Positions 13,206 through 25,192 of a DNA stretch of 32,000 bases are shown here, in pieces. The notes beneath the pieces are model-generated. The model was not told where the DNA came from. It did no database searches and worked only from the letters and a program-made list of their open reading frames with translations. The translations under genes and the position numbers were made by a program. The first letter of the stretch is position 1, and each line of letters opens with the position of its first letter. The DNA is from Paraferrimonas sp. SM1919 (lineage in GTDB: Bacteria > Pseudomonadota > Gammaproteobacteria > Enterobacterales > Shewanellaceae), in NCBI RefSeq assembly GCF_010993985.1, contig NZ_WINH01000005.1, positions 34,721 through 66,720 of the forward strand. Reading direction: 5' to 3'.

Positions 13206-14270
13206 TTGATGTTAAACATTTATGCAGGCGAGGGAGCCCTTAAACAAATACAACAGCAGGGCATACAGCAACAAATGTTTCGTCACTTTTTGGGTGCCAG
13301 TGGCGGCCCTAAGTGGTTTACCTTATTTGGCTTAGATAAATATCTATTCGGTGAGTTTTTTAAAGACAGAACCGAAACCTTAAACCTAATTGGCTCAAGC
13401 GCCGGTGCGTTCCGTTCCGCCTGCTTTGCTCAAAATGATCCTGTGCTAGCCATTTCTACTTTGGCTGAACACTACCATAAAACCGTTTATGAAGGCCGAC
13501 CAAGCCCTGCTGAAATTACCCAAAGCGCAGTCGATATGCTGGAGCCTATGTTTGGTGAAACCGGCGTTAGGCAAATTTTAGATAATAAAATCTTTAAAGC
13601 GCACTTTATCGTGGCCAAGTGCAATGGCTTTGTGGCGAGTGAAAACCGCCTAGTTCAGGGGTTAGGTATTGCTAAAAGTTTATTATTAAACAAACATGCA
13701 CGCTCAAACTTAAACAATCAATATCAGCGCTTTATTTTCAGCGCCCCGGGTAGTGATCTAACCATCAGCGATCACGCCAATATTCATACTCAAAAGGTAA
13801 CGCTAACCCACGACAACTTGAGACAAGCACTAGTGGCTTCGGGCTCGATACCTTTGGTAATGAGCGGCATTGAAAATATTTTAGGCGCGCCAACGGGCAT
13901 GTACCGTGATGGTGGCATTATTGATTACCACTTTGATTTTGAAATTGAACAACCGGGTTTAACCCTATACCCACACTTTAGTGAAACCATTAAACCAGGC
14001 TGGTTTGATAAAAACTCCAACCGCAGCTTCTTACCAGAAAACTATCACAATACCGTAGTGGTTTGCCCTTCGGAAGAATTTGTGGCTTCTTTGCCGTATC
14101 AGAAAATTCCTGATCGTAAAGACTTTGAAACCATGACCCCAGAGCAGCGTATTCCTTATTGGTCACTGGTACTGAAAGAAACCGAACGGTTAGCGGCAAG
14201 CTTTGATGAATTAGTACAGAAACAACAGCTCGATAGAGTCAAACCAATACAGAGTATTGCCGTGGTTTAA
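13206..14270 (+). CDS. Patatin-like phospholipase family protein
   Basis: Shows a Gly-rich oxyanion region GASGGPKW, the nucleophile elbow GSSAG (GxSxG) and the catalytic-dyad motif DGG in YRDGGIIDY. The start is TTG 13206 or the adjacent ATG 13209. Confidence 0.75.
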   Translation: MMLNIYAGEGALKQIQQQGIQQQMFRHFLGASGGPKWFTLFGLDKYLFGEFFKDRTETLNLIGSSAGAFRSACFAQNDPVLAISTLAEHYHKTVYEGRPSPAEITQSAVDMLEPMFGETGVRQILDNKIFKAHFIVAKCNGFVASENRLVQGLGIAKSLLLNKHARSNLNNQYQRFIFSAPGSDLTISDHANIHTQKVTLTHDNLRQALVASGSIPLVMSGIENILGAPTGMYRDGGIIDYHFDFEIEQPGLTLYPHFSETIKPGWFDKNSNRSFLPENYHNTVVVCPSEEFVASLPYQKIPDRKDFETMTPEQRIPYWSLVLKETERLAASFDELVQKQQLDRVKPIQSIAVV

Positions 14271-14387
14271 TTAGCTGTGCTTTAGTATCATTCAAGTAAG
14301 TAAAATGCTGAGGTTGATAGTGGCACAATGACTTGCCTTATATCCGCGCTAGATTGGTTTGGAACTGGCTTAATAGTGTTAAATGGG

Positions 14388-14417
14388 CTGCTGTTTTATG
14401 GGTACAGCAGACCTTTT
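14388..14417 (+). terminator. Possible terminator hairpin downstream of the patatin-like gene
   Basis: CTGCTGT-9 nt-ACAGCAG followed by ACCTTTT. The stem is short and the U-tract weak. Confidence 0.4.
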
Positions 14418-14449
14418 ACGAAATAGCATGAGCTTGTGGTTTATAGTTT

Positions 14450-14479
14450 GCTGCTTCACGACTTTCAGCGTGAAGCAGC
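14450..14479. terminator. Strong hairpin between convergent genes, 3 nt past the stop of the minus-strand MscS-like gene
   Basis: Perfect 11-bp stem GCTGCTTCACG / CGTGAAGCAGC with an 8-nt loop. There is no clear U-tract on either strand, so its terminator function is inferred from position only. Confidence 0.45.
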
Positions 14480-14482
14480 ACT

Positions 14483-14971
14483 TTAGTCAAGTTTTTTAGT
14501 TGGGTTTTTAATCACACCTTTTTGTAGGATTAAAATATTGGGATAGGTTATCACTTCTTCGCCTCTTTTTATGAGGACATGGAATAAGGTAATTTCTTCA
14601 ATAACACCCGAAATATCATCATCTTTATCAAGCACTTTAATTTTATCCCCCACACGGTAAGGAAAACCAAAGAAAATAATTAAACTGGCGGTTATGTTGC
14701 TAAGAATGGACCACTGTGCAAATAGGGCCACGCCAATCACCGCGAAAACAGATGATAAGAATATCGAAATTTGTGAATATTCCACTCCTGAAATGTTTGC
14801 CATCAAAATTAGAAAAAAAGCCAGAATGGCAAATGTTATCGTCTTTGAGATATATTTAATCCGATACGGGCTTACGCCTTTACCTTGTCCATACTTATTA
14901 ATTGCGATACGAGAAAATCGCACGCAAAAATACATTATTACTAAAGTTAAGATAACTAAGGACATCTTCAT
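14483..14971 (-). CDS. Small mechanosensitive-channel (MscS-like) family membrane protein
   Basis: 162 aa with three predicted TM helices followed by an MscS-type beta-domain signature (FPYRVGDKIKV...ISGVIEEITLFHVLIKRGEEVITYPN). It is much shorter than canonical MscS. Confidence 0.65.
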   Translation of the reverse strand: MKMSLVILTLVIMYFCVRFSRIAINKYGQGKGVSPYRIKYISKTITFAILAFFLILMANISGVEYSQISIFLSSVFAVIGVALFAQWSILSNITASLIIFFGFPYRVGDKIKVLDKDDDISGVIEEITLFHVLIKRGEEVITYPNILILQKGVIKNPTKKLD

Positions 14972-15456
14972 TGTTTATTGAGCTCTTTTTTTAGTTCATC
15001 AAATTTGTCATGTAACCTCATTAACTCAAGCTCTAACTTTAAATTTACTTCAAAGGTTGCTTTTTGTTCTAATCTGTCTTTGGCAACTTGACGGTTTTGC
15101 GACATCATTATGATAGGAGCCTGAAATGCCGCCAGACTGGAAAGGCCTAAATTTAGTAAAATAAATGGGTAGGGATCAAATGCCGCGTCGCCAATTAACC
15201 ATAGGGTATTGACCACCATCCAACATACAATGAAGGTAAAAAATATCCCTATGAATGCCCATGAACCACCAAATGCAGCTATTTTGTCTGCCACTAATTG
15301 ACCAAATGTGAGTGTTTCATGGAAGCTTTCATTGATATTTTTAGTTAGCGTTTTGTTTTCAGCAATACTGTCAATTACGTTCTTTTCGCCACTACTGAGA
15401 CTGCCATAGGGTTGACCTAGCAAGGCTTTGGCTAAATTTTCAAAATACTTTTTCAT
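14968..15456 (-). CDS. DUF1003 family membrane protein
   Basis: 162 aa with two TM helices and the characteristic DPYPFILLNLGLSSLAAFQAPIIMMSQNRQ..KDR motif, followed by a C-terminal coiled coil. The stop overlaps the downstream MscS-like start by 4 nt (ATGA). Confidence 0.7.
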   Translation of the reverse strand: MKKYFENLAKALLGQPYGSLSSGEKNVIDSIAENKTLTKNINESFHETLTFGQLVADKIAAFGGSWAFIGIFFTFIVCWMVVNTLWLIGDAAFDPYPFILLNLGLSSLAAFQAPIIMMSQNRQVAKDRLEQKATFEVNLKLELELMRLHDKFDELKKELNKQ

Positions 15457-15729
15457 TTTTAAAACCTTAAGAATTATCTAGGATTAACTTTTAACATAAA
15501 AAGCACCGCATTATGATCTTTAGTTTACTTTTGATCAATAATTTAGCAGCACTTTGCAAAAGGACATCACCTCAAGTGATACCTTGTAAGTTTAGTTTCT
15601 TATTAGGTTAATTATTGTAAACCCACTTATATGCTAATTAGTCGCAGTGCCAACATAAGTGAGCGATTCAAACCTAATTAATACAGCACCGCAAAATCAG
15701 TAAGCATGGCAGTTGCTGATCGGGTTGTT

Positions 15730-16683
15730 TTAGCGTTTCTTATGCTGGTACATTTTCTCATCGGTGATCTTAAGCAGTTCATCTAATGTTTGTGGGTTAT
15801 CTAAATCAAATTCGGTCATGCCAAAAGAAAACTCTATGTCATAACCTTTGCCAGCTTGTTGGTTGTGGGCTGCAACCGTATTGGCAAATCGTTTAATGAA
15901 GTCATTGGCTGAGTTTTCATTGGTGTTCATTAGCAGTACTACAAATTCATCCCCACCTATTCGAGCAACAATGTCAGATTCACGTAAGTTAGTCTTAATA
16001 TCATTGGCAAAAGTTTTTAGAACATAATCACCTTCATCATGACCATGGGTATCATTAATGGGTTTGAATTTGTCTAGGTCTAAATACACCAGCGTAGCAG
16101 CTAGTTGCTCTCTTAAACAAAAGTTTAGCGCTTGTGGTGCAATGGCGTTCAGTCCACGACGGTTGTGGATCTGAGTTAATTCATCCATTATCGCTAGCTC
16201 TATCGCTGCTAACTCATTTTCAGCTGTTTGTCCTAATGCTTTTAGATCCTGAATATCTTCATCAGTTAGGGTACGAGGTTGATAATCCACCAGACATAAT
16301 GAACCCAAGGCGCTGCCATCAATACATCTGATAGGGCAGCCAGCATAGAAGCGGATATAAGGTTCCCCTTCGACAAATGGGTTGTCTACAAAGCGCTCAT
16401 CTTTAAATGTATCTGCAACCATTAGAATCTCAGGCTGTAAAATGGTGTGGCCACAAAATGAAATATCACGGGGGACTTCTGCACGTTCTAGTCCATCGGC
16501 AGACTTCATCCATTGACGGTCACTATCAATGATACTAAAAACGGCAACAGGGACGTTAAACATCCTTTTGGCCATTCGAGTAATACGATCAAATCGTTCT
16601 TCACTAGGCGTATCTAGGATATTCAAGGCCGCGACGGCTGCTAGGCGTGCTTCTTCATTTTTGGGTATAGCTGCTGCGATCAT
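15730..16683 (-). CDS. GAF domain-containing diguanylate cyclase (GGDEF)
   Basis: 317 aa with an N-terminal GAF-like region. The C-terminal GGDEF domain has an intact active site (RIGGDEF) and an RxxD I-site (RESD) five residues upstream. Confidence 0.85.
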   Translation of the reverse strand: MIAAAIPKNEEARLAAVAALNILDTPSEERFDRITRMAKRMFNVPVAVFSIIDSDRQWMKSADGLERAEVPRDISFCGHTILQPEILMVADTFKDERFVDNPFVEGEPYIRFYAGCPIRCIDGSALGSLCLVDYQPRTLTDEDIQDLKALGQTAENELAAIELAIMDELTQIHNRRGLNAIAPQALNFCLREQLAATLVYLDLDKFKPINDTHGHDEGDYVLKTFANDIKTNLRESDIVARIGGDEFVVLLMNTNENSANDFIKRFANTVAAHNQQAGKGYDIEFSFGMTEFDLDNPQTLDELLKITDEKMYQHKKR

Positions 16684-16727
16684 ATTATTAATCCTAGTTA
16701 TTGGTTATAAGTTAATAATAGCCATAA

Positions 16728-17603
16728 TTAACTTGGGTCGAGATGAATTATTACTTCAGCCTTAGGAAGTAAAGTTAGAACCCTTAATCGGGCTTGCTCA
16801 CCAATTTCATGGGCATCAATGAGTGGCGTTGTAGCCTCTATCACTAAATGAACTTGGATAAATTGAATATCCGCACTTTGTCTGGTTTTAAGGTCGTGTA
16901 TTTCAATAATTTTGGCGTCTTGGCGAATTAATTTGGTCACTTGCTTAAGCAATGTTGCATCAAGTTGAGTATCCATGAGTTCTGCAATGGCTTGCTTGAT
17001 TAATTGCTGCGATTGTATCGCTAGCCAAATGCCAATAGCTATCGCAAAAAAACCATCTAGCCAATAACCTAAATATTGGCTACTGACTAAGGTCATAATC
17101 ACGCCTAAATTAAGCAGTAAATCAGAACGATAATGTAGACTGTCAGCCTTGATGATGATACTCGCTGTTTTGTTAATGGCGATTCTCTGGACAAGCAATA
17201 AAGCAAGGGTCAAGATGATCGCGACAATACTCACCGTTATAGCCATAGTACTGCTTTGAATTATTTGTGGATCAACAATTTGTCTACCACCATTGACTAA
17301 CAAAATAATGGCGGAACCCGCGAAAAATAGCGCTTGTAATAAAATCGCTAGGGAACCGGCTTTGCCATGACCGAAAGGATGGCCATCATCAGCAGGAGTC
17401 AATATGTAGCGAATAGCAGCAAAGTTAACAATAGCGATTAAGGCATCAACACTTGAGTCCATTAATGAAGCGAGCATCGCAGAGGAATCGGATATTAGCC
17501 AAGCAATCAATTTTATTACCACCAAAGTTAAGGCGGTAAGCACACTAAATATTGAGGCAAATTTTAGCCAAAATTGCTGTGATTGTTGTTTGTTGTAGGA
17601 CAT
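16728..17603 (-). CDS. fieF: Cation diffusion facilitator family metal efflux transporter (FieF/YiiP-like)
   Basis: 291 aa, collinear with E. coli FieF (ADDGHPFGHGKAGSLA, LHYRSDLLLN, HDLKTRQSADIQFIQVHL, EVIIHLDP). Confidence 0.85.
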   Translation of the reverse strand: MSYNKQQSQQFWLKFASIFSVLTALTLVVIKLIAWLISDSSAMLASLMDSSVDALIAIVNFAAIRYILTPADDGHPFGHGKAGSLAILLQALFFAGSAIILLVNGGRQIVDPQIIQSSTMAITVSIVAIILTLALLLVQRIAINKTASIIIKADSLHYRSDLLLNLGVIMTLVSSQYLGYWLDGFFAIAIGIWLAIQSQQLIKQAIAELMDTQLDATLLKQVTKLIRQDAKIIEIHDLKTRQSADIQFIQVHLVIEATTPLIDAHEIGEQARLRVLTLLPKAEVIIHLDPS

Positions 17604-17659
17604 ACATTAGCTTTGTAATGGTTAACTTAATTAACTTACCATCTTTCAATAATTGTTCA

Positions 17660-18523
17660 CTAATTTTTAATCATTTCTATATTAACACCGTGATAATTCC
17701 CCAACACTGCATTATGACTTTGATCACTTCGAGCCTGTCTAGTTATGGGTTTTAATTGGTTTAATGGATAAATCTGGCAGTGCTGATCACTTATGATCAC
17801 CATGGGTAAGGCCGCAGTTTTGGTTAAACGACTTTTATCTGCAAACCAAATATTACTCACCGGCTGGATACTGACAGGGCGGCGATATCTTAATTTTGAT
17901 TCTTTAACGGATACAACCTTGTTGAGCAATTGCTTTATATAAAGTTGCTCTGAAGTTTGTGCCTCTGCGTTTAGTTTTGCAACTAATTGCTGTTTATTGA
18001 CTTTTTGTAAATTGGCTTTATTTACCCAATGGAATCTAACTTTCTGTACATCTTTTTCAATTAAGTGTATTTGTCGATATAGGTGCAAAGTCATTACCCC
18101 GGGAAGGGCATCATGGAGGGCGTCAAAACGAGTGAATCTGTCATGATAATTATCGGTAACAAACACTTTTATTTGATTTTTAACAGCATTGATTCCCTCG
18201 ACTAATGCGTCAAGTTGATATTTTCTTGCTTGTTGATGTGAAAATCTAATGCAACCAGGATATCTTCTGGCGTACTTACCTGATAGCCCATCAATCAATG
18301 TTAAATCTTGATAAGCCTGACTGATTTTTTTATCTGCACCTTGGTCGAGATAACTTTGTTTTATGGCGGTTTGTGACTCTATATTTGTGATTAGGTCATT
18401 TTCCTTATGTTTAAAAAACAGCTCCGTAAACTGACTCTGATGGGGTTGAGCCTGTTCAATGATATCGCCAAATTGCTTGAGATCAGAAGTTAATTGATTG
18501 ATTAATTTGACGAGTTTAGTCAT
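17660..18523 (-). CDS. tus: DNA replication terminus site-binding protein Tus
   Basis: 287 aa from ATG 18523. By-eye alignment to E. coli Tus gives: RFDALHDALPGVMTLHLYRQI...VRFHWVNK vs [21 protein letters not shown]...LRFGWANK. It also gives KLRYRRPVSIQPVSNIWF vs KLKIKRPVKVQPIARVWY. The size is similar (E. coli Tus is 309 aa). I preferred the internal start because it overlaps the upstream gene stop (ATGACTAA) and matches the Tus N-terminus better than the 16-residue extension. Confidence 0.8.
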   Translation of the reverse strand: MTKLVKLINQLTSDLKQFGDIIEQAQPHQSQFTELFFKHKENDLITNIESQTAIKQSYLDQGADKKISQAYQDLTLIDGLSGKYARRYPGCIRFSHQQARKYQLDALVEGINAVKNQIKVFVTDNYHDRFTRFDALHDALPGVMTLHLYRQIHLIEKDVQKVRFHWVNKANLQKVNKQQLVAKLNAEAQTSEQLYIKQLLNKVVSVKESKLRYRRPVSIQPVSNIWFADKSRLTKTAALPMVIISDQHCQIYPLNQLKPITRQARSDQSHNAVLGNYHGVNIEMIKN

Positions 18524-19502
18524 TTTTCTTACCTTGAATGAACTGCTGTATAAGTTGTTGGTTTTGTTCATTTTGTTGACTTAGGCTGGTAATCAATAAT
18601 TGTTGGGCCTGGTTTTCATTTTTGAGTGATGATATTTGTTGGTTTTCGATACGAAGTGATGCATCAGCTTGTTTAAGTTGCTGCGTAAGGTCTTGTAATT
18701 TCTCATTAGCTATTGAATGGTTTAGCGTTAAGTCTTGGATGACTTGCTGTTGTTGAGTTAATTGTTCTTCGAGCTGGTTAACTTTGTCATTAAGATTGTC
18801 ATTGGTTAATTGCAGTTGATGATTATTTTGGTTACTTAAGGATTGTTGCTGTTGCATTTGTTCTATCTTCTGCGATGCCAGATTCAGTTGTTGCAAGTGG
18901 TTTTGTTGTTGCTGTTCAGCATAAGCTTGCAATTGTTGCCTTTCCCGTAAACTTTGCTCGCTAAGGTGTTGCAATTGCCCTTGCATTTGTACGTTGTCTT
19001 GCTGCAATTGTTTATTATGTTGCTGCTGTTGTTGTTGCTTGTCTTGGTGATGCTCCAATTTCAGTTGGAGCTCTTTCAGTTGTGTCTTTAAGTGTTGATT
19101 CTGTTCATTTAAATCTTCAACTTTGGCAGTGGTATGTTCCAAAGCAATCCTTTTCTGTTCGAGTTCAAGTTCACACCCTGCGAGTTTAGCGGTTGTTTTT
19201 GTCACTTCGTCTTGTAAATGCAGTTGTAACTGATGGGCCTCTTGCTCTAATCGTTGCCATTTGAACTGTGCATCTTTTTGTAATTGTTGGTACAAAGATT
19301 CAATCACTTGAATTAGCCCATGGGGTAGGCTAGTGGGTTGTTCATGTTGGTGACGCCACTGCTTAAGCATTGGCGCGATAGTGCTTTTGCTGCCACCGCC
19401 CAACGCATCTCTAACCTTATCTACTGTAGGATTTTCTCCCTTAGCAGCCAGTTCTTCAGCAGCCTGTTTTACCTGTTCGTAAACAATCCCTATTCTTGCC
19501 AT
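18516..19502 (-). CDS. KfrA_N-type DNA-binding protein with a long glutamine-rich coiled coil
   Basis: 328 aa. The N-terminal 50 residues (VKQAAEELAAKGENPTVDKVRDALGGGSKSTIAPMLKQWR) match the plasmid KfrA N-terminal DNA-binding domain pattern (GExPT..KVR..LGGGS..TI...L..WR). The remainder is heptad-like and rich in Q, L, E and N, including a QQQQQQ run. Confidence 0.7.
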   Translation of the reverse strand: MARIGIVYEQVKQAAEELAAKGENPTVDKVRDALGGGSKSTIAPMLKQWRHQHEQPTSLPHGLIQVIESLYQQLQKDAQFKWQRLEQEAHQLQLHLQDEVTKTTAKLAGCELELEQKRIALEHTTAKVEDLNEQNQHLKTQLKELQLKLEHHQDKQQQQQQHNKQLQQDNVQMQGQLQHLSEQSLRERQQLQAYAEQQQQNHLQQLNLASQKIEQMQQQQSLSNQNNHQLQLTNDNLNDKVNQLEEQLTQQQQVIQDLTLNHSIANEKLQDLTQQLKQADASLRIENQQISSLKNENQAQQLLITSLSQQNEQNQQLIQQFIQGKKND

Positions 19503-19588
19503 GGTAATTAACTCACTATTTGTAACGTATTATGTAATATGTAATTATTTTAATTTAAGTGGTCTAATTATACAAATATTTATCATTT

Positions 19589-19622
19589 ATTAGTTTCGAT
19601 AATGTATATTATCGAAATTTAA
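19589..19622. other. Candidate tyrosine-recombinase core site (lox/dif-like, 13-8-13)
   Basis: Sequence is ATTAGTTTCGATA-ATGTATAT-TATCGAAATTTAA. A perfect inverted repeat TTTCGATAAT / ATTATCGAAA lies at 19594-19603 and 19608-19617. The 14 nt ATAATGTATATTAT (19599-19612) are identical to the centre of E. coli dif. The spacer matches 6 of 8 positions of the loxP spacer ATGTATGC. The site lies about 40-70 bp upstream of the Cre-like recombinase gene. Confidence 0.55.
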
Positions 19623-19662
19623 TGAGTTAAAATATGCCGATATAGCTGTACTGTTCGGTACA

Positions 19663-20697
19663 GTGACGAATAGGGATTTTGGCACTCAAATGGCGAAACA
19701 ATCACAACCAGCAATCATGTCTGTTTTTACACAATCACAGCAGCAACTGCCGCAAGCCAGCGCTGTATATCCTGAAGAGCAACAATTGTCAGTAGCCGCA
19801 AAGGAATTGATGAGTCATGGAACTTCTGCAAACACTCGTAAGAGTTACCAAAGTGCTATTAAGCAATTTATTGCTTGGGGTGGCCGTTTACCCAGCAACA
19901 AAATCCAAATTCTTAATTACATTTCAGAGCAATCTCAAAGTTTGAATACTCGCAGTTTAGATCTCCATCTAACGGCTATCAGTCAGTGGCATTATTTGCA
20001 GGAATTCTCCGACCCTGTCCGTTCACCTGAAGTAAAAAAAATAATGCAAGGACTCAGACGGGTTCACGGTAAGCCAAAGCAACAAGCTAAAGCCCTTAGC
20101 GTGGCCGAATTAAAATTGATCTGTGGTTCCTTAGATAATGAAAATTTATCTGCGATCAGAGATAGGGCGATGATTTTAGTTGGCTTCGTTGGCGCGTTTA
20201 GACGAAGTGAGTTAACCGCTATTGATTTTAACGATCTGACGTTCACTGAAGAAGGTTTGCTGATCAAAATCAAAAGAAGCAAAACCGATCAATTTTCCCA
20301 AGGAAGCACTAAAGCTATCCCATATTCTCCTTTTGAGGATTTATGCCCTGTTCGAGCTATGCAAGGGTGGCTAGAGCACGGGAATATTGTCAGTGGAGCG
20401 GTGTTTAGAGGGATAAACCGTTGGCAGCAGCTTTCTGCCAATGCCATCTCAGACACGAGCGTTAACCAAATCTTAAAAAATCGTGCCAAAGCGGCTGGCA
20501 TAAAAGATCATCAATTGCTCAGTGGTCATAGCCTACGTCGTGGCATGGCTACAGAATCTTCAAAAGTCGGAGTGGAATTCAATTTAATTAAGAAGCAGGG
20601 TGGTTGGCGTAGTGATCAGACCCTGTGGCAATACATTGATGAGGGTAAAGCCTTTACTGATAATGCTGCTCACTTGCTATATCAAGCATTTAAGTAA
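19663..20697 (+). CDS. Tyrosine site-specific recombinase, Cre-like
   Basis: 344 aa from GTG 19663; ATG 19690 is an alternative start. Catalytic signature: Arg in GAFRRSEL, Lys in KRSKTDQ, HxxR in GHSLRRG, Trp in GGW and the Tyr nucleophile in WQYI. The C-terminal pattern GHS.R.G.A...G.....I...GGW.......YI parallels Cre (GHSARVGAARDMARAGVSIPEIMQAGGWTNVNIVMNYI). Confidence 0.85.
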   Translation: MTNRDFGTQMAKQSQPAIMSVFTQSQQQLPQASAVYPEEQQLSVAAKELMSHGTSANTRKSYQSAIKQFIAWGGRLPSNKIQILNYISEQSQSLNTRSLDLHLTAISQWHYLQEFSDPVRSPEVKKIMQGLRRVHGKPKQQAKALSVAELKLICGSLDNENLSAIRDRAMILVGFVGAFRRSELTAIDFNDLTFTEEGLLIKIKRSKTDQFSQGSTKAIPYSPFEDLCPVRAMQGWLEHGNIVSGAVFRGINRWQQLSANAISDTSVNQILKNRAKAAGIKDHQLLSGHSLRRGMATESSKVGVEFNLIKKQGGWRSDQTLWQYIDEGKAFTDNAAHLLYQAFK

Positions 20698-20858: not shown

Positions 20859-21356
20859 CTAAGCCTTCATGGCGCGCTCACCACGGGCAATGCCAACGAT
20901 GCCAGTACTGGCAGTCTCGATAATTTCGGCACTATCGTCAATCGTTTTAACAAAAGCATCGACTTTATCTGAATCACCAACCACTTGGATGGTGTAATGC
21001 TTCGCGGTCATATCAACGATTTGGCCACGGAAAATATCAGCAATCCGTTTCAATTCGTCTTTAAGCTGTGGGGTGGTTGCTTTTACCTTAACTAATACCA
21101 CTTCACGCTCAATATGCTCACACTCGGTAATGTTCATCACTTTTAGAACATCAATCAATTTATGCAATTGCTTTTCAATTTGCTCAAGGCTTTTCTCATC
21201 AACACTGGTGGTAATGTTCAGACGGGACAAGGTTGGGTCATCCGTCGGCGATACCGTTAATGATTCAATGTTGTAACCACGCTGTGAAAACAAACCCACC
21301 ACACGAGATAGGGCACCTGGTTGGTTTTCTAGTAATAATGATAAGATCCTTTTCAT
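20859..21356 (-). CDS. ilvH: Acetolactate synthase (AHAS III) small regulatory subunit
   Basis: 165 aa with an ACT-domain N-terminus, [35 protein letters not shown], typical of IlvH. The start overlaps the ilvI stop (TAATG). Confidence 0.93.
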   Translation of the reverse strand: MKRILSLLLENQPGALSRVVGLFSQRGYNIESLTVSPTDDPTLSRLNITTSVDEKSLEQIEKQLHKLIDVLKVMNITECEHIEREVVLVKVKATTPQLKDELKRIADIFRGQIVDMTAKHYTIQVVGDSDKVDAFVKTIDDSAEIIETASTGIVGIARGERAMKA

Positions 21357-23534: not shown

Positions 23535-24782
23535 TTAGCAATTAATTTTGGGAAGCTGTTGCCAGGAACTTAAATAGCTAGGTGATAAAAAATGACGCTG
23601 CATTTGCCAAGGTCGTTCTCCTACCATGCGGCTAGGGGTAATGGTGTGACGACCGTATTTAGCATTAATTTCATCTACGCAATTCATTAATTGTGGGCAA
23701 TTAGGGTACTGGTTAAACATGTCTTTTTGATAATACTGACTGCTCTCTAATAGGGTTGCTCCTACACCACATTTGTAAAACGGTATGCCTGCTTGATAGA
23801 GATATTTTGCACAGGCTGCAATACTCTGACTGATAACTCGGTCATCATCGAAACCATAGGGGAATTCAATTATTTTACTGCGCCTAACATAATTTTCCTT
23901 ATGGGGTGAGCTATGGGCAAAAAGCAGCATTTTTTTAATTAATAATCTTTGCTTGCGTGCTTTTGTGCATACTTCGACCCCATGACTGACCAATGCTTGG
24001 GTCAGTTCATCAATATTGCTGACGCCCTGACCAAAAGTGCGCGTTGCAAAAATTTGCTGATTTTCCGCTGGCAATTGATCCCATTTTAATACCGCTTGAC
24101 CTTTTAGCTCTAACACGGTGCGAGCTAAAGGCCTACCAAAAGCTCGTCTGATACGCTGAGGTGATTGCTCAGCTAATTGCCAAGCACTATGGATATCCAT
24201 CAGTGCCAATTTCTTAGCCAGTCTACGACCTACGCCCCATACTTGCTCGACTTTCATCTGCTTTAAAATCTGACTACGGCTGATTTCGCCATCAATTACC
24301 GCGACACCACTAAAACCTGATAGCTTTTTAGCCGCATGATTTGCGGCTTTCGCCAAAGTTAAAGTTGGGCCAAACCCAACACCTACCGGTAGCTTCAACT
24401 GTTGCCATATCTGTTTACGTATAGTTAATCCTAATTTGGCAAAACTATGTTGGTATCCTTGATAGTGCTGAAAGCACTCATCAATAGAATACACATACTG
24501 GTTATCACAAAAACTTTGGCAAATGTTCATCATGCGCCGGCTAAGCTCCCCATAAAGGGCATAGTTACTGGAGCGGATCACTACGTTATGACTGGCTAAG
24601 AGCTCCCTGAGCTTAAAGTAGGGCTCAAATTTAGGAATATTAAACTTTCTTGCCAGCGGACAAACCGCACAAATGCAGCCATCGTTATTGGTTAATACCA
24701 CAACAGGTTGGCTGCGTAAGCTAGGATCGAGGCTTTTCTCACAGGAGGCATAAAAACTAATGCCATCAATTAAGGCATACAC
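23535..24782 (-). CDS. umuC: DNA polymerase V catalytic subunit UmuC (Y-family)
   Basis: 415 aa. The N-terminus MYALIDGISFYASCE parallels E. coli UmuC MFALCDVNAFYASCE, and the SIDECF motif is present. It overlaps the umuD end by 13 nt. Confidence 0.92.
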   Translation of the reverse strand: MYALIDGISFYASCEKSLDPSLRSQPVVVLTNNDGCICAVCPLARKFNIPKFEPYFKLRELLASHNVVIRSSNYALYGELSRRMMNICQSFCDNQYVYSIDECFQHYQGYQHSFAKLGLTIRKQIWQQLKLPVGVGFGPTLTLAKAANHAAKKLSGFSGVAVIDGEISRSQILKQMKVEQVWGVGRRLAKKLALMDIHSAWQLAEQSPQRIRRAFGRPLARTVLELKGQAVLKWDQLPAENQQIFATRTFGQGVSNIDELTQALVSHGVEVCTKARKQRLLIKKMLLFAHSSPHKENYVRRSKIIEFPYGFDDDRVISQSIAACAKYLYQAGIPFYKCGVGATLLESSQYYQKDMFNQYPNCPQLMNCVDEINAKYGRHTITPSRMVGERPWQMQRHFLSPSYLSSWQQLPKINC

Positions 24783-25192
24783 GCTTGGATCACCTCTGTT
24801 AATCGTTGCCCAGCATGTATTCTGATTGACGTGCTAATGACACCTTCAATTTGAAATTCATCCCATTCATTGATAGCAACAGGGCCATACTTAGGGTGCG
24901 CAGAACATAATTGCCGTCGTTGTTTATCCAATAGCTTACACACAAAGCTGCCATTATAGTTAGCAACAATAATATCCATATGGACAGCGGTAATGGCTCT
25001 ATCGACTAATAATAAATCACCAGAATAAATGCCAACCCCTTGCATGCTGTCACCATTGGCAATACCAATAAAGGTAGCATTAGGGTGTTCAATTAACAGT
25101 TTATCAAGGGATAAACCGAGTTCTAAATATTGCGCCGCTGGAGATTCAAATCCCGTGATCCCAGCTTCAGCATATAGGGGAATAACCTGCAT
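24770..25192 (-). CDS. umuD: DNA polymerase V subunit UmuD (LexA-like S24 peptidase)
   Basis: 140 aa. It has GFESPAAQY (E. coli GFPSPAADY), the catalytic Ser in GDSM and a Lys in FVCKLL. An SOS box lies upstream. Confidence 0.9.
   Translation of the reverse strand: MQVIPLYAEAGITGFESPAAQYLELGLSLDKLLIEHPNATFIGIANGDSMQGVGIYSGDLLLVDRAITAVHMDIIVANYNGSFVCKLLDKQRRQLCSAHPKYGPVAINEWDEFQIEGVISTSIRIHAGQRLTEVIQACMP

Follow-up and report, generated by a model that had tools for sequence, protein, structure and literature searches.

The window (the whole 32-kb stretch of DNA that was analyzed) carries two divergent genes separated by a 187-bp gap (19503-19689). On the plus strand, a TnpS-like, Cre-related tyrosine recombinase of 335 aa is encoded (19690..20697, Pfam Phage_integrase). 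On the minus strand, the gap is bordered by the gene for a TnpT-like helper of 328 aa (18516..19502), in which a KfrA_N DNA-binding domain (Pfam 3e-24) is combined with a Q-rich coiled coil, and this gene is followed by tus, encoding a replication terminus-binding protein of 287 aa (17660..18523, minus strand, Pfam Ter 3e-37). These Pfam matches agree with the initial annotation, which had named a tyrosine recombinase, a KfrA_N protein and Tus as adjacent genes. Inside the gap, a 34-mer (ATTAGTTTCGATAATGTATATTATCGAAATTTAA) was read directly from the window sequence at 19589-19622, with the perfect 10-bp inverted repeat TTTCGATAAT/ATTATCGAAA inside it, both as first described. The module is abutted by the housekeeping genes ilvIH, hrpA and pdxH, and the window genes are ordinary chromosomal ones (tamA, kefC-like, hrpA, pdxH, a GGDEF gene, a CDF transporter, ilvIH and umuDC). 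No Tn3-family transposase was found in the 32-kb window using tblastn and Pfam, and no terminal inverted repeats, flanking direct repeats or target duplications were found around the module.

The recombinase open reading frame opens at GTG 19663, giving the 344-aa protein that had first been proposed, and contains an ATG at 19690 that gives 335 aa. The start is most probably ATG 19690, since M10 of the 344-aa frame does not vary across the aligned family and the database protein that matches at 100% identity, from Paraferrimonas sp. SM1919, has 335 aa; the tyrosine recombinase is where it had been placed, with a probable length shorter than first given. Compared using BLASTP, the protein was 33% identical to Tn4651 TnpS (323-aa integrase, pWW0, E 4e-53), and a TnpS homolog from the Shewanella ANA-3 plasmid shared 45% identity with it. 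The family search gave 1551 matches, headed by proteins of 45-49% identity from Microbulbifer, Cellvibrionales, Alteromonas, Shewanella and other groups, and no relative above 49% identity to the window proteins was found in the 5.8 billion proteins searched. The best PDB matches were Cre/Tre and engineered Cre variants (E about 1e-7, ~25% identity). All the catalytic residues (R, K, H-x-x-R, W and Y), which do not vary across the family, are present in the window recombinase, the conserved tyrosine being Y324 in the 344-aa numbering. Scores against the Xer equivalog models fell far below their cut-offs (XerC TIGR02224, 40.7 vs. 335 bits; XerD TIGR02225, 48.6 vs. 330; XerS NF003462, 27 vs. 267), and the XerA equivalog model was likewise failed by a wide margin. 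Judged by these scores and homologies, the recombinase is a TnpS-clade protein, not a Xer protein.

The N-terminal domain of the TnpT-like protein was 39% identical to that of Tn4651 TnpT (332 aa, E 7e-12). A KfrA_N domain and a coiled coil were also found in Tn4651 TnpT itself (pWW0, locus L083:29463-30461, Pfam KfrA_N E 3e-26) and in two other TnpT proteins. The neighboring gene had been called 'kfrA-like' as if it were incidental to the site; it is instead homologous to the TnpT helper of the same system. KfrA of the IncP plasmid RK2, which autoregulates via an operator in its own promoter, is alike in having an N-terminal KfrA_N domain and then a long coiled coil, whereas the window protein partners a recombinase in the manner of TnpT and lies outside any plasmid korA/incC/kfr partition-related region. 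TnpT has been portrayed in the literature as without similarity to known proteins, and the KfrA_N DNA-binding domain found here runs contrary to that description. Since Tn4651 TnpT carries both Pfam KfrA_N and a coiled coil, TnpT and the plasmid KfrA proteins can be placed in one fold family.

The 34-mer (19589..19622, unstranded) is organized as a core crossover site of the rst-like kind, in register with the family core nTAACCnnCGATAA-N6-TTATCGnnGGTTAn. A left arm of 14 bp (ATTAGTTTCGATAA, 19589-19602) and a right arm of 14 bp (TTATCGAAATTTAA, 19609-19622) enclose the asymmetric spacer TGTATA (19603-19608), a 14-6-14 layout that is equivalent to a Cre-style 13-8-13 layout, with a single arm type. 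The tyrosine-recombinase core layout that had been recognized from the letters alone therefore matches the anatomy of the family. The inner 6 bp of both arms coincide with the family-invariant positions, and 11 of the 14 arm positions are symmetric (family range, 9-14). No other family member has outer arms so divergent (18/28 positions match the consensus, vs. 19-27 elsewhere in the family), and the conserved CC/GG pairs of the family arms are missing. Given these diverged outer arms, the window core could be decaying. At one outer position, the same base-pair change is present in both arms, a pattern predicted for arms that co-evolve with their recombinase. In single-stranded form, the palindrome folded far better than shuffled sequences (z = -4.6).

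The 24-nt palindrome occurred as a single copy in the window when up to 3 mismatches were allowed (0 matches in 100 shuffles), and no second credible copy of the degenerate family core CGATAA-N6-TTATCG was found in the 32-kb window, so the earlier statement that the site is single there held under both searches. The sequence CGATAATGTA at 17128 resembles a half-core, but a match of this quality is expected by chance. As the window holds no transposase, no element ends and no second site, the defining transposon context is missing and there is no obvious substrate for resolution. No Rfam match was found in the intergenic region, and the window-specific arm variant gave no matches in a metagenome scan.

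Two further elements lie in the gap. Beside the tnpT-like gene, accessory repeats (19520..19548, unstranded) consist of GTAACGTATT followed by tandem ATGTAAT ATGTAAT and align with the conserved family block GTAACGTATTACGTAAnACGTAATAT. In the rst of related elements, the core inverted repeat is the recombination point (PMC7157771; PMC4337579; PMC4619425) and a second palindrome is the accessory site bound by TnpT (PMC4337579; PMC4619425); by analogy, the repeats at 19520-19548 are presumed to be the TnpT-binding accessory site. Beside tnpS, the inverted repeat CTGTAC-TGTTCG-GTACAG (19646..19663, unstranded) aligns with the conserved family block CTTGTAACGCCGGTACA, ~30 bp 5' of the recombinase start codon, and is possibly an operator or a further accessory site. 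The family form of this third conserved gap element is CTTGTAAC-GCC-GGTACA (alignment columns about 160-180), its GTACA occurs in Tn4651 too, and no mention of it was found in open-access papers on related rst regions. When whole intergenic regions were aligned across the homologous loci, a comparison that the initial annotation had proposed, all three conserved blocks (core, accessory repeats and tnpS-side repeat) were found to be kept in register in the window.

Promoter sequences were also sought in the gap. A perfect TATAAT is present on the minus strand (19572..19567), and it had been taken to place the 34-mer over the -35 region of the kfrA-like/tus operon. The hexamer exists as described, but no acceptable -35 hexamer was found 16-18 bp upstream of it, and a promoter scan of the intergenic region found no sigma-70-like site, leaving the proposed overlap unsupported. 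Both divergent promoters are located within rst in a related system (PMC4619425). In the family alignment, the left arm of most members contains CGATAAT, a possible -10 box, with TTGAAT ~17 bp upstream.

The conservation of the site was examined in 80 homologous loci, obtained by an alignment-based scan of species-representative genomes. A divergent TnpT-like gene lay directly beside the recombinase in 69/80 loci, and CGATAA-N6-TTATCG (2 mismatches or fewer) was present upstream of the recombinase in 68/80, so that the core is conserved next to orthologous recombinases, as had been asked of a genuine site. The family core is usually flanked by TAACC and GGTTA, and its typical distance is ~93 bp to the start of the tnpT-like gene and 58 bp to that of the recombinase gene (87 and 68 bp in the window). 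In the 47 unique sites, little or no variation was seen at the six inner positions of either arm, and two variable arm positions were complementary more often than shuffling predicts; the 30 different spacers included none that was palindromic.

Two of the homologous loci were interrupted at the core itself. Locus L013 (5823-5856) is the same as L011 (5823-5856) rightwards from the last 3 bases of the spacer, through the right arm and the recombinase gene. Left of the break in the spacer, L013 is unrelated to L011 and tnpT is absent. L076 (5819-5852) is similar to L013, with the recombinase-side half-core only, a breakpoint within the 6-bp spacer and no tnpT. The breakpoint between L013 and L011 fits the remnant that would be expected of a crossover at the core, and the half-cores of L013 and L076 look like scars of recombination with secondary sites. 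In several family contigs, the sequence stops no more than about 140 bp before the recombinase gene, which fits assembly breaks at a point of module exchange, and module reassortment at rst has been noted for related elements (PMC4337579).

Most of the relatives have mer/czc cargo and Tn3 transposases as neighbors, and many are at contig ends or multicopy. A tnpA gene was found within 6 kb in just 8/80 loci; tnpA in Tn4651-type elements can lie tens of kb away. In Microbulbifer (loci L005, L030, L050, L067, L092, L093 and others), TnpS/TnpT pairs were observed in a partly syntenic chromosomal neighborhood (BCCT transporters, MscS, FMN reductase) with no transposase within 10 kb and with core palindromes that were perfect or near-perfect. 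These Microbulbifer solo modules suggest long-term vertical retention. Solo TnpS/TnpT modules thus recur, given that tnpA was near the pair in so few loci and that the syntenic Microbulbifer pairs are transposase-less.

The tus gene does not share this conservation. It begins at ATG 18523, before the tnpT-like gene has ended, and the two share 8 nt (18516-18523) that take in the tnpT-like stop codon; because of this overlap tus is probably co-transcribed, and perhaps translationally coupled, with the tnpT-like gene from the rst promoters. The window Tus is 100% identical to the Paraferrimonas sp. SM1919 Tus entry, and its nearest relatives are 34-37% identical, including a plasmid-borne Edwardsiella copy. 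A tus gene was absent from all 80 homologous loci, no TnpS/TnpT neighbors were found beside the other Tus relatives examined, and the junction of tus with the module is accordingly unique among the loci and Tus relatives examined. In the window, tus is a neighbor that lies outside the conserved module. Two GTTGTAAC octamers (the E. coli Ter core) were seen near tus, at 19223-19230 in the tnpT-like gene and 21270-21277 in ilvH. Two such octamers are no more than chance would give, and the wider E. coli Ter consensus is matched by neither, so they were rejected and the divergent Tus was left with no assigned Ter site.

In Tn4651-type transposons of the Tn3 family, TnpS and TnpT form a two-protein cointegrate resolvase and rst lies between their genes (PMC7157771; PMC4337579). 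Tn4651, TnXax1, TnXocp1 and the pZM3H1 mer/czc transposon carry a homologous recombinase and helper as a divergent pair, as in the window. The pZM3H1 pair, a 43%-identical relative, was named tnpS/tnpT by its authors, who described a hairpin resolution site with it (PMC3606827). The intergenic length is also alike, at 187 bp in the window compared with 188 bp in Tn4651 and 193 bp in TnXax1 (PMC4337579), and the window gap and the rst of Tn4651-type systems both hold a recombinase core palindrome and a tnpT-side repeat block. Unlike these systems, the window is without tnpA, terminal inverted repeats or cargo in 32 kb, its tnpT-like gene is in an operon-like overlap with tus, its proteins are just 33-49% identical to any relative, and the outer arms of its core have diverged. 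Similarity between the window DNA and Tn4651's own rst is not evident by eye, and the site-level support is drawn from the closer sub-family instead of the Tn4651 site that was mapped by experiment.

From these comparisons, the 34-mer most likely forms the crossover core within an rst-type resolution site belonging to a TnpS/TnpT module (Tn4651-type, Cre-related). The evidence comprises the homology of both proteins, the conservation, register and architecture of the site, and the crossover scar of a relative. The module in the window is very probably a divergent orphan TnpS/TnpT module, and not a new dif-like chromosome-dimer system. TnpS/TnpT/rst is a known kind of system; what is new is a divergent orphan member, with no surrounding transposon in the window and joined to tus.

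By analogy with Cre/loxP and Tn4651, one TnpS monomer would bind each 14-bp arm, and two sites would synapse as a tetramer. Y324 would cleave at both edges of the 6-bp spacer, with strand exchange passing through a Holliday junction, and the asymmetric spacer would set the polarity of the site. TnpT, as in the related systems, would bind the ATGTAAT-type repeats on the tnpT side of the gap, about 70 bp distant, and assist the reaction. Occupancy of rst probably autoregulates both genes, and tus would be included here through the overlap; a regulatory role alongside recombination is likely. The orphan module itself may have persisted for a long time as what is left of a transposon or plasmid insertion, or it may have been kept and be active only when two copies of the site meet.

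That site and proteins are by now non-functional, the decayed relic of an old transposon or plasmid insertion, is a real though minority possibility, and it bears on present activity alone, not on the identity of the element. It would account for outer arms that are the most divergent in the family, for the missing transposase and element ends, for closest relatives at 49% identity or less in 5.8 billion proteins, and for a site variant that was not found in the metagenome scan. Decay is opposed by the full length of both open reading frames and their complete catalytic residues, by the register in which the three intergenic sub-elements are kept, by an arm symmetry (11/14) within the family range of 9-14, and by the matching base-pair change in both arms, as co-evolution predicts. 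Conversely, solo TnpS/TnpT/rst modules might have been domesticated by chromosomes, with tus expression governed by site occupancy and with the single lox-like site, with its dif-type spacer, serving sister or dimeric chromosomes in Xer-independent resolution or in terminus-linked recombination. We regard this as improbable; if it were true, the transposase-less syntenic Microbulbifer pairs would be independent examples of retention.

The initial annotation had framed the site as dif-like, in the manner of XerS/difSL and XerH/difH. Such a dedicated single-recombinase chromosome-dimer system, lying in the terminus region beside tus, would be consistent with a module that is directly joined to tus, with a chromosomal, single site without transposase in the window, and with the solo syntenic Microbulbifer chromosomal pairs, which indicate that long-term retention occurs. 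It is also favored by the central 14 nt of the site (ATAATGTATATTAT), which are indeed identical to the center of E. coli dif, as first noted. Over the whole of dif (the dif and loxP reference sequences used are attested in papers), the window site matched at 19/28 positions (XerC arm 6/11, spacer 6/6, XerD arm 7/11), and the conserved XerD arm is absent, in line with the earlier reading. Eight of the 14 dif-identical bases (ATAA, TTAT) are family-invariant, and a spacer reading TGTATA is expected about 1 in 233 times given the spacer composition of the family, a tolerable coincidence after comparison with several reference sites. No canonical dif was found in the window at 3 mismatches or fewer.

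XerCD/dif, XerS/difSL and XerH/difH are alike in pairing a tyrosine recombinase with a short site and a 6-bp spacer, and in the XerS and XerH systems the recombinase gene adjoins the site, as in the window. In contrast to dif, which is a 28-bp site (11-6-11) with distinct arms, the window site has 14-bp arms of a single type and no XerD arm. Unlike the Xer systems, the family is transposon-associated, its members being mostly found with mer/czc cargo and Tn3 transposases, many of them multicopy or at contig ends, and there is no sign of terminus placement. Local GC skew has no sign change at the site, and family modules were located at 36-84% of the length of nine complete chromosomes. A clustering at the terminus that was considered for the first six of these (36-64%) was dropped, as the next three were at 69%, 81% and 84%. 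No other Tus gene examined has a TnpS/TnpT neighbor. With a recombinase of the TnpS clade and not of Xer type, transposon-linked relatives and a dif-identical center that family-invariant bases and a spacer coincidence mostly account for, the dif/XerS/XerH-type framing was set aside, and a dedicated dimer-resolution system is very unlikely.

The least probable reading is that the palindrome serves as a transcriptional operator alone, for a KfrA-like repressor or for the recombinase, with no recombination; the autoregulation known for RK2 KfrA would favor it. Although rst regions hold both promoters (PMC4619425) and CGATAAT could be a -10 box with TTGAAT ~17 bp upstream in most family members, invariant arms around a free but always asymmetric spacer are the signature of a tyrosine-recombinase core, the break of L013 inside the spacer calls for strand exchange, published work has TnpT at the other palindrome (PMC4337579; PMC4619425), and no recognizable promoter lies over the window site.

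The recombination core was also compared with Cre/loxP of phage P1, whose engineered relatives include SCre/SloxP and VCre/VloxP. The window site has the 34-bp layout of that type (two 13-14-bp inverted arms and an asymmetric 6-8-bp spacer) and matched loxP at 22/34 positions; the arms of the family (ATAACCTTCGATAA) and of loxP (ATAACTTCGTATA) are similar, and the catalytic residues are the same. The single arm type suggests recognition by one homo-oligomeric recombinase. The earlier proposal of a Cre-like, dedicated recombinase with its own adjoining site of one arm type is borne out, as Cre is the closest solved structure and the conservation within the family agrees. The window recombinase differs from Cre-type proteins in being only ~25% identical to them and in a context that is not that of a phage or plasmid-prophage. 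Cre and SCre work without a helper, whereas the clade of the window recombinase is typically paired with TnpT, and this recurrent partner suggests that a helper is in use.

The experimentally validated SloxP shares the CGATAA-N6-TTATCG inner core (PMC3082901). SCre is inactive on loxP and Cre is inactive on SloxP (PMC3082901), and because these recombinases do not exchange sites, cross-reactivity of the window pair with lox sites is not to be assumed. SloxP shares its inner core with the TnpS-family sites although the recombinase clade differs, and the comparison with SloxP rests on site similarity, not on the assignment of the SCre gene. On plasmid 1 of Shewanella ANA-3, the natural SloxP (L085:5001-5034) is intergenic. 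A TnpS/TnpT pair with a family-type core of its own (L085:8459-8492) lies ~3.5 kb away, and a gene for a 371-aa Cre-like protein ~4.2 kb away. SCre was considered as a direct member of the family and not kept as one; the 371-aa protein, a candidate for SCre, shares only 25% identity with the window recombinase.

The site and both genes, for which automatic annotation gives 'site-specific integrase' and 'DNA-binding protein', are now assigned to one known unit, TnpS/TnpT/rst. The family core nTAACCnnCGATAA-N6-TTATCGnnGGTTAn at its fixed offset, together with the accessory repeats, could be used to annotate rst sites in the marine gammaproteobacterial sub-family. It could also help in the choice of orthogonal recombinase/site pairs, as Cre relatives such as SCre are already engineering tools; no pair of the set has arms more divergent than those of the window pair. 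The tus-linked orphan copy could inform on the mobility or regulation of tus, and as it stands is an oddity of context, not a new mechanism.

The base composition and the neighboring genes were also inspected. G+C was 0.35-0.40 at 14000-20000, which covers the DUF1003, GGDEF, CDF, tus and tnpT-like genes, and 0.41-0.46 in the flanks; the lower G+C hints at a horizontally acquired block larger than the recombination module. The CDF gene in the window is not of the CzcD cargo family found in related transposons. The umuD/umuC genes (translesion polymerase V) are at 23535-25192, 3 kb past the module, and an Agaribacterium Tn3/czc element with a family member (L094) is flanked by umuDC too, which may be a coincidence.
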